A stretch of DNA of 64,000 bases from a virus. Positions 21,535 through 25,321 of the stretch are shown here, piece after piece (positions within the stretch are counted from its first letter, which is position 1; each line of letters begins with the position of its first letter). The notes beneath the pieces were generated by a model. It was not told the DNA's origin and ran no database searches. It worked only from the letters and a program-made list of their open reading frames with translations. Location of the stretch: IMG/VR virus record IMGVR_UViG_3300017973_000001, positions 32,001 through 96,000 of that record. One strand, 5' to 3'. A program made the translations under genes and the position numbers.

Positions 21535-21909
21535 ATGTTGAAATTCAATCCATTCTCTAGCATTAGTAGTGTAGAAAAAGTAGGGATATGTTCTCTAACA
21601 ATTTGGTGGGGGCTTATATCGATCTTGCCGTTAGGGAAACTATTAAGTGAGCCATACTACACTCTATTAGCTGAGGTCAAAGACACTGGTTTTCTAGTAA
21701 TGATATTAGGTCTATTACTTCTGTATTCATTTTTAAATCATAAAAGAAAACTAGAAAAGTTCTGCTTACTATTTCTCACTTTTTACTGGTTTTATGTCGC
21801 CAAACTAGTAAATATCGAGGAAACATTTTTTATGCCTAGCACCATCTATCTGTTAATTGGTCTAGTAACAAGTTATTTATACGTCAAAGTGGGGGTGTTG
21901 GAGAAATGA
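21535..21909 (+). CDS. four-TM membrane protein of lysis cassette
   Basis: hydrophobic segments; context. Confidence 0.6.
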   Translation: MLKFNPFSSISSVEKVGICSLTIWWGLISILPLGKLLSEPYYTLLAEVKDTGFLVMILGLLLLYSFLNHKRKLEKFCLLFLTFYWFYVAKLVNIEETFFMPSTIYLLIGLVTSYLYVKVGVLEK

Positions 21910-22253
21910 AACTAGATAGCACAGTTGTTAGCGCTCTATTTGGAGCTTCGGGAGTCGTTGTTACTAGCTTAGTAGGATTGATAGTAACAAAGGTCAATAA
22001 CAAGAAAGACGTTAAACTCTCAACAAGCGAGCGACTGTCTAACGATCAAACACAATTCTACGAAATGGTCATGAATGAAATTAAAGAAGTAAAAAAACGA
22101 GCTGACGAGGTTGAGCAAGAACTTGTACAGTGGCGTGAGGAAGCATTACAACTACGGATAGAAAACAAATCTCTTAAAAATAGGGTGGAAGAACTTGAAA
22201 AACTGATTACAAAATATCAAAAGGGAGAGATCAAAAATGAAACATATTCTTAA
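21906..22253 (+). CDS. TM plus coiled-coil lysis accessory protein
   Basis: N-terminal TM, long coiled coil, upstream of holin and endolysin. Confidence 0.6.
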   Translation: MKLDSTVVSALFGASGVVVTSLVGLIVTKVNNKKDVKLSTSERLSNDQTQFYEMVMNEIKEVKKRADEVEQELVQWREEALQLRIENKSLKNRVEELEKLITKYQKGEIKNETYS

Positions 22254-22473
22254 AGAAGGTTTTTCAATCAATGAAGCTAAGTTTTCAGTGATTGTTCTAA
22301 TGACGTTAATTACGTTTGGTATAACGTTATACCAATTATTCAGTATAGGGCATATTACTAAGTCTTTACTGGACTTATTACAGTACCTATTGATGACTTT
22401 ATTTGGAGTGAATGTTGCAAATGGAGTTACTGGCGCTATATCAGATTTTAATAGCAATAAAGACGATAATTAA
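22237..22473 (+). CDS. holin-like two-TM protein
   Basis: 78 aa, two TMs, directly before endolysin. Confidence 0.65.
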   Translation: MKHILKEGFSINEAKFSVIVLMTLITFGITLYQLFSIGHITKSLLDLLQYLLMTLFGVNVANGVTGAISDFNSNKDDN

Positions 22474-22518
22474 CTTTCTACCTATACTAACGTATAAGAT
22501 TAATAGGAGGGGATTAAT

Positions 22519-23262
22519 ATGACGTTTAATATGAAATATAACATCAACAAAGATTACATAGCTAAGGGTACTATGAAACGCCCTGGAAATGGGATTAAAG
22601 TACAATTTATCGTGGCTCATGACACTGGGAACCCTGGTTCAACTGCTCAAAATAACGTAGATTACTATAAACGTGTTGCTAATGAGTCTTATGCTTCAGC
22701 TCATATTTTCGTAGATGATAAGCAAATTCTTGAGTGTATCCCGGCTTTAACTGGTCCTACAGAAAGGGCTTATCACGTAATCTATGATGTTACTAAAGAT
22801 AATGAGTTATTTGGTGTTGACGCAAATGATGGGGCGATTGGAGTAGAGTTTTGCTATGGAAATGGCATTAATTTTACTGAAGCTTACAAGAAGTATGTAT
22901 GGGTTATTGCTTACATCTGCTTTAAGTTTAACATTGACCCACGTAAGAAAATTACTGGCCATTTCATCTTGGACCCGGCTCGTAAAACAGACCCGGTAGG
23001 GGGGCTGAAATTTGGTGGAAAGACTTTCCCACAATTTTTAGCTGATGTAGTTACTGAGTACAATAACTGTATCATTCCGGATCAACAAGTAAAGCCAATA
23101 CCTCAACCAACTGGTGTAACTTATAAAATTCAAAAAGATGATACATTTTGGGGAATAGCTACACGTTTACATATGAATGTAAATGACTTAATGAAGTTAA
23201 ACCCAGGTGTTGATCCTAAAAAGTTATCAGAAGGTATGGAGATTATCATTGGAAAAAAGTAG
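22519..23262 (+). CDS. endolysin: N-acetylmuramoyl-L-alanine amidase (Amidase_2) plus LysM
   Basis: VAHDTGN, SAHIFVDD, AYH, IGVEFC, GH...KTDP; LysM YKIQKDDTFWGIA...LMKLNP. Confidence 0.93.
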   Translation: MTFNMKYNINKDYIAKGTMKRPGNGIKVQFIVAHDTGNPGSTAQNNVDYYKRVANESYASAHIFVDDKQILECIPALTGPTERAYHVIYDVTKDNELFGVDANDGAIGVEFCYGNGINFTEAYKKYVWVIAYICFKFNIDPRKKITGHFILDPARKTDPVGGLKFGGKTFPQFLADVVTEYNNCIIPDQQVKPIPQPTGVTYKIQKDDTFWGIATRLHMNVNDLMKLNPGVDPKKLSEGMEIIIGKK

Positions 23263-23510
23263 AGGAATATATTAGGCCAACTGAAGCAAGTTCGCCTTTT
23301 ATAGTAAAAGAAGTACCGTACCCAGGAGACTTGAGAAAAGGCTCTAGAGGGGAGGGTGTTAAGTTACTTCAGCAGTACTTAGGAGCTGAACCGGATGGTA
23401 TATTTGGACCTAAGACTGAGAAGTTGCTTATTACCTACAAGAAAAGGGAAAGAATGAAGGACGTTAGTGGAGTTCTTAATTTCATGACCTGGTACAAGCT
23501 TGTTAAATAA
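23253..23510 (+). CDS. -1 frame extension of endolysin encoding a PG_binding_1-type domain
   Basis: open -1 frame after A_AAA_AAG reads ...LRKGSRGEGVKLLQQYLGAEPDGIFGPKTEK...TWYKLVK*. Confidence 0.8.
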   Translation, partial: KKVEEYIRPTEASSPFIVKEVPYPGDLRKGSRGEGVKLLQQYLGAEPDGIFGPKTEKLLITYKKRERMKDVSGVLNFMTWYKLVK

Positions 23511-23522
23511 TAAATACCCACC

Positions 23523-23750
23523 TTAATCGGTGGGTATTTTAAAATCTTCTAGAACTGTTCTAACCACAGATATGTCATAACCTAGATGTGGCTCATAAGA
23601 TATTACATACGTATGTTGGTTTTTAAACCTAAGAAAAGTTTTTTTACGTCCTATCCTATGGATAACCTCAGAATTGTTTACTTCATATAGAATACGGTTA
23701 ATACACTGTATCCTATCCTCAATAATATTAACTCTTTGGTTATACCTCAT
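23523..23750 (-). CDS. hypothetical protein
   Basis: last ORF of leftward region. Confidence 0.45.
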   Translation of the reverse strand: MRYNQRVNIIEDRIQCINRILYEVNNSEVIHRIGRKKTFLRFKNQHTYVISYEPHLGYDISVVRTVLEDFKIPTD

Positions 23751-23778
23751 AATCGCATGATCGCCTATCCAAAGTTGT

Positions 23779-24663
23779 TCAAAGACACTCCTTTGATTGT
23801 TTTTCTATTTCTTTAACAAATAGCATGGAAATGTCCGGGTTAAATACTTTTTGAGCTTCTACAATACTACGCATAGTCCTAACAAGGCCATGTTGTTGTA
23901 CACTGCTCGCTAAAAGGTCTATTGCTTCATCACTTCTTAATTCAATATCTGCAAATTCTTTAATAAATCCGATTACATCTAAAAAGTCTTTTGTTTCTTT
24001 TAATTTCCCAGTATCAGAAGGTGCTATATCTAAAGGTGCAAGGTCAATTTTATTTATATTTTTTCTTTTTGAGTTATCGATACCGATTGTGCTAAGTTCC
24101 ATTTCATTTCGATTATTAATCTTATGGAAACTAGCTTTGATTAGATCGCCTTCCTCAAAGTATTCATGAATATCAGCTATATATGCGTCCTTAATACGTG
24201 ATACATGGACTAATCCTTGATATTTACCATCTAACGTTTTACATACTGCTCCAACATTAGTGAGTACTTTTACAACTTTTAAATCCAATAATTGTCCGTA
24301 GTAGAAAGGGGGCTTGTCAAAAGGTTTACTGTTGGTATCTTCTGAAGATTTATCTTTCAATGACTTGTTTTCTGTACTATAAACGACTTCTCTTTCATCA
24401 ACTTGATTATCTAGTTCGTTATCTAGTGGTGTATCAGTAGAATCATCATCTTTATACAAAAGTTCTTTGACGTTTAAGTCTTTATATATTCTGTAATAGT
24501 AGTAATTTACGTTTGCATACTGCATGTCATATTTAGTACATAGCCCACGGATGAAGTCAACACTAGTCATTTTATTTGTACCTTCAACCAGTGATATTAA
24601 ATAATCGTGAATTTCTTTTTTTAATTCTTCTTTTACTTTTTGTGAAAGCCTATTAGTTGCCAT
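23779..24663 (-). CDS. S1 RNA-binding domain protein
   Basis: GQLLDLKVVKV...GA......GLVHVSRI...YI.DI.EYFEEGDLI; AAGGAG RBS. Confidence 0.8.
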   Translation of the reverse strand: MATNRLSQKVKEELKKEIHDYLISLVEGTNKMTSVDFIRGLCTKYDMQYANVNYYYYRIYKDLNVKELLYKDDDSTDTPLDNELDNQVDEREVVYSTENKSLKDKSSEDTNSKPFDKPPFYYGQLLDLKVVKVLTNVGAVCKTLDGKYQGLVHVSRIKDAYIADIHEYFEEGDLIKASFHKINNRNEMELSTIGIDNSKRKNINKIDLAPLDIAPSDTGKLKETKDFLDVIGFIKEFADIELRSDEAIDLLASSVQQHGLVRTMRSIVEAQKVFNPDISMLFVKEIEKQSKECL

Positions 24664-24726
24664 ACTGTGCTCCTTTGTAAACACTTTGAAGTTTTTAAAT
24701 TTTTACATAATAAAAAGGGCTATGTG

Positions 24727-24945
24727 CTATAAGCCCTTTTTCATTGATTTTCGGCCATCATTAAACAACTCAAGTTGTTCATTGATCTGTTTGCCGGCCT
24801 CATCCCATGCTGTTTTATAAACGGCAATATGATTTTCGCTTTCTTCAACTTCCACGCTAATTCCGGCATGGAATTGAATTGACTCATAGTTAGGGAGAGA
24901 TTTCTTATAAGTTACCGATACGTTTATGTTGTTTACTTTAGCCAT
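24727..24945 (-). CDS. hypothetical protein
   Basis: GGAGG RBS before MAKVNN; LPNYES motif. Confidence 0.65.
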   Translation of the reverse strand: MAKVNNINVSVTYKKSLPNYESIQFHAGISVEVEESENHIAVYKTAWDEAGKQINEQLELFNDGRKSMKKGL

Positions 24946-25321
24946 GTTGTTCTTCCTCCAAGCAGTTATCACAAATATCAAATATATTAGTAGATTCTTC
25001 GCCACAATCGGGACAGAAAGTAATTGGGTAACTTTCAAAAATTGAGCATGAGATTCCTTCTTTAGTAAGAAGACCGTTTCCGGAAAAACTAGCTAATACC
25101 TTTTTTGAGTCGTTTGTATAAAAGGGTTTGCCAGTAGTGAACCAGTTTTTAAACTGCTCTACGCTCAAAAACTCGTTCTCGAAAAAGCCATAGAGCAATC
25201 CATTTTCCTCAAACTGAATAAGGTGGGGTAGACCTCTAGAGTAGTCTACCTTTTTTACCTTACCCCATTTCCCACTAAATTTAATAGAACAAGAGGGTAG
25301 AATAAATACCTTATTACTCAT
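24938..25321 (-). CDS. hypothetical protein with C-terminal zinc finger
   Basis: CPDC...CDNC. Confidence 0.6.
   Translation of the reverse strand: MSNKVFILPSCSIKFSGKWGKVKKVDYSRGLPHLIQFEENGLLYGFFENEFLSVEQFKNWFTTGKPFYTNDSKKVLASFSGNGLLTKEGISCSIFESYPITFCPDCGEESTNIFDICDNCLEEEQHG

Follow-up and report, generated by a model that had tools for sequence, protein, structure and literature searches.

The endolysin gene of a complete 109-kb peat-metagenome phage, located within a 64,000-nucleotide stretch of the virus record IMGVR_UViG_3300017973_000001 (hereafter the window), has a structure that could permit its expression through a -1 ribosomal frameshift. The reading that we favor, to which we give about even odds, is that a dnaX-type signal at the 3' end of an amidase-LysM open reading frame (ORF) causes a functional -1 frameshift and yields two isoforms, with a second wall-binding domain, PG_binding_1 (PGB), being dosed at the level of translation. 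The window encompasses bases 32001-96000 of the record, and coordinates are window positions unless noted otherwise. The record consists of 109,430 bp with 35.4% GC, has direct terminal repeats and is rated complete. A peat metagenome is the only public sequencing run that contains the stretch and is probably its source; RNA runs containing it are not listed.

In the proposed mechanism most ribosomes would decode the gene normally, stop at the TAG at position 23260, and release a 247-amino acid (aa) zinc-amidase-LysM enzyme. A minority would slip back by one base with both Lys-tRNAs on the heptamer A_AAA_AAG while translocation is slowed by a hairpin and by a tether between a Shine-Dalgarno (SD)-like sequence and the anti-SD; alternatively, the slip could occur in the P site while the TAG awaits the release factor. 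The likely stimulators are a GGAG sequence 11 nt upstream, which would pair with the tail of the 16S rRNA, and a hairpin 8 nt downstream. After the slip the ribosome would read GTA GAG GAA and onward, adding a 20-residue linker and a three-helix PG_binding_1 domain, and the resulting 330-aa amidase-LysM-PGB protein would have the architecture that its three-domain relatives encode in one frame. As to its origin, the signal may have arisen by a one-base deletion on a pre-existing slippery Lys-Lys site, later tuned by the SD-like motif and the hairpin. We infer that shifting would reach a useful level and be kept by selection, and we regard the site as a candidate, rather than an established, member of the -1 frameshift sites.

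The endolysin gene and its -1 extension

The best PHROG matches of the 247-aa ORF are endolysin families, with phrog_833 at the top (3.4e-38). In the alignment of the amidase, 59 columns are identical in all 22 sequences including that of the window, among them those of H34, H148, K156 and D158. The retention of these invariant columns, a profile score above the curated cut-off (Table 1) and the PHROG match identify the protein as a member of Amidase_2. Upstream of the break, 93 columns show conservation of at least 90% among 21 homologues, and the protein retains 84 of them. The LysM domain is complete, as the match covers profile positions 1-42 of 43, and the 3' end of the ORF reads GGA AAA AAG TAG. 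The initial annotation, made from the sequence before any database search, had described this same end and the slippery heptamer within it.

The -1 frame is open from position 23226 and reaches a TAA at 23508-23510 that is immediately followed by a second one (double stop, 23508-23513). It stays open for exactly the length of the C-termini of the homologues, shows neither stops nor indels beyond the break, and, judged by this homology, is certainly coding sequence. At the junction the translation reads ...IIIGKK followed by VEEYIR, and the junction peptide of the 330-aa form would be ...IIIGKKVEEYIR... No terminator-like sites were found by a terminator scan between positions 23262 and 23510. 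The 83 open codons, the PG_binding_1-like domain that they encode, and the computed lengths of 247 and 330 aa for the two products all agree with what had been annotated initially.

The assignment of the extension to PG_binding_1 is based on the profile score, which exceeds the cut-off, and on the predicted three-helix fold. An AlphaFold2 model generated with the alignment has pLDDT values of 94-96 over extension residues 21-83, and includes helices at residues 32-41, 51-63 and 75-82. When this model was compared using Foldseek the best match was the peptidoglycan-binding domain of phiKZ gp144 (3bkh, rmsd 0.8 A). Further matches were 9h68, 6tci and 1lbu; SleC, SleB-N and 1lbu rank after 3bkh. 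With respect to the D-G-x-x-G-x-x-T repeats, the first one, DGIFGPKT, is intact and the second one, SGVLNFMT, is degenerate, S replacing D and N replacing G at columns that at least 20 of the 21 homologues conserve, so that the domain has one recognizable copy of the repeat instead of two.

The Logan assembly of the run, produced independently, is identical to the record over positions 22000-25000 and has no indel or bubble there; the sequence is found on a 35.7-kb contig with a k-mer depth of 10.8. As it was made from the same reads, this assembly rules out an assembler slip, although not a systematic read error, and the possibility that the break is an assembler artefact was discarded.

A candidate frameshift signal

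The heptamer A_AAA_AAG is present in phase 12 times in the ORFs of the genome, but only two of these copies are found at the end of an ORF that is followed by a long -1 ORF, namely that of the endolysin gene and one at the position of the tail chaperone genes. The switch of frame has to occur within the last dozen codons of the zero-frame ORF, which include the heptamer, as homology to LysM extends to residue 244 of 247 and the -1 frame is readable from 23226. Homology that begins at the V codon at 23259, which is probable from the comparison of translations, would narrow the switch to the heptamer itself.

The two accompanying elements, a GGAG ending 11 nt upstream of the heptamer and a downstream hairpin with the core AGGC.AACU/AGUU.GCCU, are located where the initial annotation placed them. 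The duplex of GGAG with the anti-SD has a calculated energy of -6.4 kcal/mol, a value equaled or improved at 8.1% of sense-strand positions. A GGAG, GAGG or AGGA core 10-14 nt before a given position, which was taken as the background, occurs at 3.1% of positions when both strands are considered and at 3.6% of the sense-strand positions of the ORFs of the genome. The hairpin has a minimum free energy of -12.8 kcal/mol and its first pair is 8 nt past the heptamer. It ranks in the 1.2-3.5th percentile of genome windows, 1.2% of the sense-strand windows of 45 nt starting 3 nt after a given site being as stable, and among the 12 in-phase heptamers the endolysin copy has by far the best hairpin. 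When the region was recoded synonymously, keeping the -1 peptide fixed and the codon usage of the phage, 3.1% of the recodings were as stable. Two rare codons, AGG (12% of Arg) and TCG (4% of Ser), are part of the stem. An SD-like duplex and a hairpin of such quality co-occur at 0.05% of sense-strand positions, or perhaps 0.5% after allowing for post hoc choice of the measures. Inspection of the sequence by eye revealed no pseudoknot partner for the hairpin loop. The Rfam frameshift-element families gave no match, and the region 23100-23600 produced only chance-level hits to unrelated families.

Table 1. Features of the endolysin region of the window and the evidence for each
Feature	Position	Strand	Basis or remark
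Three small ORFs (124, 115 and 78 aa)	21535-22473		Upstream of endolysin gene, which is at the end of a lysis block
Ribosome-binding site AGGAGGGG	22505-22512	+	Read from sequence; 6 nt before ATG 22519; strong
Zero-frame endolysin ORF, 247 aa plus TAG, amidase-LysM (putative short isoform)	22519-23262	+	ORF list, Pfam, PHROG
Amidase_2 (N-acetylmuramoyl-L-alanine amidase) catalytic domain, residues 27-159	22597-22995	+	PF01510, E 1.5e-18, 67.8 bits (cut-off 26)
LysM wall-binding domain, residues 202-244	23122-23250	+	PF01476, E 4e-10, 39.9 bits (cut-off 20.9)
Internal SD-like GGAG	23238-23241	+	Ends 11 nt upstream of heptamer
Candidate slippery heptamer A_AAA_AAG, phase X_XXY_YYZ, codons GG-A AAA AAG	23253-23259	+	Sequence
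-1 extension, 83 codons plus TAA; with residues 1-247, the predicted 330-aa long isoform	23259-23510	+	Translation; aligns to C-termini of in-frame homologues
Zero-frame stop TAG, directly 3' of heptamer ("shifty stop" position)	23260-23262	+	Sequence
Predicted hairpin: outer UAUA/UAUA stem, 2x2 internal loop, core AGGC.AACU/AGUU.GCCU, 6-nt loop	23268-23303 (core 23274-23297)	+	Folding
TTG, first ATG/GTG/TTG in -1 frame; 59-aa ORF	23331-23333	+	GGAG only 2 nt upstream; ORF called by gene caller (P0121)
PG_binding_1 domain, extension residues 31-81	23349-23501	+	PF01471, E 9e-7, 29.4 bits (curated cut-off 23)
Terminator-like palindrome with T-run	23512-23546 (palindrome 23512-23539)		Terminator scan; directly after -1 double stop, common to convergent gene

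The second heptamer at an ORF end is located outside the window, in a 152-aa ORF (L243:4794-5578, genome 100794-101578) that ends ...CT-A AAA AAG TCA ATG TAA. The heptamer (L243:5237-5243) is three codons before the stop and is followed by a -1 ORF of 111 codons, which also has an ATG of its own (5309) behind GGGAGGAG. This pair of ORFs is flanked by a virion or major-tail-like gene and the gene for a 2471-aa tape measure protein, i.e., it occupies the G/GT position. With 12 copies in about 32,000 codons, the chance of finding the heptamer in the last five codons of the 152-aa ORF is about 0.2%. This low value and the G/GT position suggest that the ribosomes of the host probably slip on A_AAA_AAG. 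No relatives of the 152-aa tail-chaperone-like protein were detected in IMG/VR.

In-phase heptamers with SD-like motifs equal to that of the endolysin gene are located at genome positions 53157 (minus strand; window ~21157), 35783 (plus; ~3783) and 44930 (minus; ~12930). They are followed by short -1 frames of 3-9 codons, and in one case the SD is the ribosome-binding site of the gene itself. These heptamers could give rise to incidental truncated products.

Relatives, origin of the split and alternative explanations

Metagenome contigs, IMG/VR and one genome of each GTDB species were scanned under the guidance of profiles, and the 240 loci obtained were then examined with hidden Markov models built from the alignment. 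PGB is fused in frame at 20 of them and absent from the other 220. The 90% cluster of the 247-aa protein has no other member. Identity to the next proteins is 53-62%, and all those with a LysM domain, 328-403 aa in length, also include PG_binding_1 in frame. The three-domain relatives comprise 21 proteins from 20 loci with 50-62% identity, and all of them are in-frame fusions. Conservation of the heptamer and stop in related phages, which the initial annotation had proposed as a check, was found in none of them, the nearest relative being 62% identical; the comparison therefore covers relatives at or beyond that distance. That all homologues could turn out to be in-frame fusions had been foreseen as the outcome that, in conjunction with failure to see a shifted product, would speak against the shift, and the first half of it is what we observed.

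Other searches yielded little that is close to this gene. A short-ORF search with the 83-aa extension returned only the 59-aa ORF of the phage itself and three unrelated complete proteins (107-109 aa), and a search with the extension gave only generic PGB matches. An exact-peptide scan of IMG/VR for close relatives found a single match, at 44%. Comparison with isolated phages using blastn showed only short matches to Staphylococcus amidases, and using tblastn the nearest were the Brevibacillus phages Sundance and Jenst (57%, amidase only). The xlyA gene of vB_BpsM-61 was considered as a natural two-domain comparator, but its product has 342 aa and hence it provides no evidence.

Two of the in-frame relatives, L146 (L146:3457-3470) and L086, suggest how the split was generated. 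Both are 124-kb IMG/VR records, an SPbeta-like size, that encode 400-aa homologues with two LysM domains, and in both a slippery sequence is found in the LysM-PGB linker in the same phase, A_AAA_AAG in L146 and G_AAA_AAG in L086 (KKVD). These relatives thus have slippery Lys-Lys codons as part of their normal coding sequence. Their linkers read GCA AAA AAG GTA GAT and ATG AAA AAG GTA GAC, respectively, and encode KKVD..LAEYLKH..RPYPG, while that of the window reads GGA AAA AAG TAG AGG AAT ATA and, in the -1 frame, encodes KKVEEYIR...PYPG. The match is short and is not placed by MAFFT, but it is probable from the sequence that this spot in the linkers of L146 and L086 is homologous to the break. 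If the homology holds, the window has the in-frame text minus one base and the slippery codons predate the break. The most probable origin of the split is that an in-frame ancestor of the form ...GGA AAA AA(A/G) GTA GAG... lost one base. The gene has in this regard the features of a truncated gene, with its relatives in frame and a break that amounts to a 1-nt indel relative to them.

A related amidase-PGB gene, at L122:3286-3288 (IMGVR_UViG_3300023301_000006), has an in-frame TGA exactly at the conserved Trp of PG_binding_1 (GPQT*ATIQ). It was the only other apparent split among the 240 loci and is of a different kind. When this record is read with TGA as Trp, neighboring ORFs merge into a single one of 893 aa. 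This suggests either a phage of a host in which TGA codes for Trp or a nonsense mutation.

Several observations weigh against a functional frameshift. A one-base loss from ...AAA AAG GTA GAG... generates the heptamer, its phase and the TAG automatically; these three features therefore cannot tell a programmed site from a lesion. Among the 240 loci, the 120 listed proteins and the short PGB ORFs, a second frame-split form was not found. With respect to the signal itself, GGAG has only 4 nt and an equally good SD-like motif accompanies three of the 11 other in-phase heptamers. The stem is weak, with an outer part of four A-U pairs and a G-C core that starts 14 nt past the heptamer, against the about 5-9 nt looked for in a stimulatory structure, and its stability was not significant when compared with dinucleotide-shuffled sequences (z -1.36; 20 of 200 fold as well, p 0.10). 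The SD, hairpin and joint-frequency measures were all picked post hoc. No other PGB domain in the set has diverged as far as that of the window, with an identity of at most 43% vs 66% for the amidase. Of its 14 columns with conservation of at least 90%, 10 are retained, compared to 84 of 93 in the upstream part (Fisher p 0.066); the four substitutions, V to L, Q to K, D to S and G to N, are all in the second DGxxGxxT repeat. No published frameshift in an endolysin gene was found, since searches on both subjects gave only frameshifts in tail or capsid genes. In E. coli the heptamer without stimulators produces at most about 10 times a background of 0.055%, i.e., about 0.5% or less, and IS911-type stimulators raise shifting to a few percent (PMC4066793). 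The shiftiness of AAG depends on a single tRNA-Lys in the host (PMC5009743); the 64-kb window includes no tRNA genes and hence no phage tRNA-Lys that could bear on this point.

The main alternative is a plain lesion, in which the LysM-PGB linker of a three-domain endolysin recently lost one base (A7 to A6, or GG to G). The 247-aa enzyme would then be the only relevant product, PGB would be an untranslated, decaying remnant, and slippage would be incidental and below about 1%. We consider this explanation a serious one, with a chance somewhat short of even. It accommodates a split that is unique to this record among relatives that are all in frame, and a single missing base with respect to the text of L146 and L086 accounts for heptamer, phase and stop. 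Indels are to be expected in homopolymers, the truncated protein keeps the whole catalytic and LysM domains, and the other ten in-phase heptamers are harmless inside genes. The divergence of PGB, with four of its 14 conserved columns replaced, also counts in favor of this explanation. On the other hand, a lesion requires that the SD-like motif and the hairpin be coincidental, at the joint frequencies given above. It also has to be reconciled with 83 codons that are still open in a genome of 35% GC and with a domain that is modeled as well folded: the open, well-folded frame implies that the lesion must be young, yet the divergence of the domain must predate it. Moreover, all four replacements are in a single repeat, and neutral decay predicts that they would be spread.

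A young lesion would account for an intact ORF whose split is unique, but the SD-like motif and the hairpin would then have to be a coincidence; an old one would account for the degeneracy of the second repeat but leave unexplained why 83 codons remain open in a genome rich in AT. Use of the frameshift would explain the open frame, the signals, and a constraint on PGB that is relaxed but not absent. The claim of programmed frameshifting made in the initial annotation is in consequence left with its anatomy upheld and its expected conservation not found, as all three-domain homologues are in frame and a one-base loss explains the heptamer and the adjacent stop equally well; that the shift is programmed is plausible, at odds close to one in two.

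Translation of PG_binding_1 as a separate small gene, from the TTG at 23331, would give a free wall-binding subunit of 59 aa. Free binding-domain subunits exist for the endolysins Lys170, CTP1L and CD27L, the gene caller did call this ORF, and the ORF covers the whole Pfam domain. However, TTG is a weak start and a GGAG only 2 nt away is poorly spaced; homology to the in-frame relatives starts well upstream of it, probably at the junction (KKVE..EYIR), and PYPG is encoded before it. Besides, no stand-alone copy was found in the relatives, the short matches being the unrelated complete 107-109-aa proteins mentioned above. An independent start at this TTG was rejected on the basis of the SD spacing and of the homology that begins upstream, and we consider a separate gene improbable. 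The lack of a convincing start in the -1 frame had already been pointed out initially.

A sequencing or consensus error, with A7 (or GG) in the true DNA and a gene that encodes a normal in-frame fusion of 331 aa, is very improbable. The break is in a homopolymer, and the sole run is probably the source of the record, so the Logan comparison is not a read-independent check. Nevertheless, that assembly is identical over 3 kb at a depth of 10.8 with no indel or bubble, and an error-prone platform would break many genes. A scan of ORF ends across the whole 109-kb genome detected only three start-less long frames spanning a stop, those of the endolysin gene, the tail-chaperone position and a convergent neighbor, and so few breaks are not the pattern left by such a platform. 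The homopolymer error against which the initial annotation had cautioned is thus largely excluded.

Productive transcriptional slippage takes place at runs of about 8-9 or more, and the A6 run is short by comparison; insertion of an additional A by RNA polymerase, whereby some mRNAs would encode the fusion in frame, was therefore rejected as the main route and is about as improbable as a read error, even though homopolymeric A runs are a known substrate and Thermus dnaX uses this route (PMC5009743).

Comparison with known systems and genome context

The candidate site includes the same three elements as dnaX, i.e., A_AAA_AAG, an SD-like sequence and a hairpin (PMC5389563). As in the tau/gamma system of E. 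coli dnaX, the SD-like sequence is about 10-11 nt upstream of the heptamer, the hairpin is a few nt downstream, and the two products would have a common N-terminus (PMC5389563). There are nonetheless clear differences. The shift in dnaX leads to a stop almost at once and results in a shorter protein, whereas that in the endolysin gene would generate a longer one. Both the SD (AGGGAG) and the hairpin of dnaX are much stronger, the efficiency is 50-80%, and the site is conserved and proven; in contrast, the endolysin site has no Rfam match. The comparison with dnaX and IS3 made in the initial annotation is therefore appropriate as regards the kind and spacing of the elements, which match those of dnaX and IS911 (PMC5389563), although here they are weaker.

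The OrfA-OrfAB arrangement of IS911 and other IS3 elements is similar in the A_AAA_AAG heptamer, a zero-frame stop near the slip, the fusion of an upstream domain to a downstream one, and the existence of a short and a long form. The IS911 stimulators are moderate and result in shifting of a few percent (PMC4066793). Unlike the endolysin gene, the IS911 system encodes a transposase, includes a three-way junction or a pseudoknot, and is conserved across a large family.

Another parallel is found in the G/GT tail chaperones of phages (G_GGA_AAG in lambda), in which an infrequent -1 slip shortly before the first ORF ends appends a C-terminal domain. Xu et al. (2004) are said to have found the G/GT position conserved in most long-tailed phages, whereas the endolysin split has been seen only in this record.

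The nearest functional analogy is provided by Lys170, CTP1L and CD27L, endolysin genes that give two products each through an internal in-frame start. As proposed here, one lysis gene makes two proteins that differ in wall-binding content. In those cases, however, a second start in the same frame produces a free binding domain, while in the present one the frames differ and the additional product would be a longer enzyme.

The nearest evolutionary analogy is that of "savior" or compensated indels such as those in the G-run of the herpesvirus thymidine kinase gene, where a one-base indel in a homopolymer is rescued in part by ribosomal slippage, at a low level, on that same run (PMC5009743). 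In compensated indels the unshifted product is useless, whereas the 247-aa enzyme is complete in its catalytic and LysM domains.

If the frameshift is functional, lysis enzymes would be added to the few phage functions that ribosomal frameshifting tunes, so far mostly tail chaperones, capsid and tail decoration proteins. It would also represent a second route, besides internal starts, to endolysin forms that differ in wall-binding content, and would be relevant to the engineering and dosing of modular lysins. Furthermore, the gene would be a clean natural case of the birth of a programmed site, in which a lesion on slippery codons was partly rescued from the first day. If instead it is only a lesion, this is an ordinary truncated gene and a reason for caution, as indels in A-runs mimic slippery sites by construction.

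Downstream of the endolysin gene, the convergent neighbor on the minus strand (23523-24684) consists of a 301-aa ORF followed by a +1 frame open for 85 codons, in which the first start is 31 nt beyond the stop; neither part matches PHROG. Upstream, two of the three small ORFs between 21535 and 22473 appear by eye to encode membrane-spanning proteins, and the other a coiled-coil protein with a weak "hol-like" PHROG match. Although they have no clear family assignment, they are probably a holin or lysis-regulator set.

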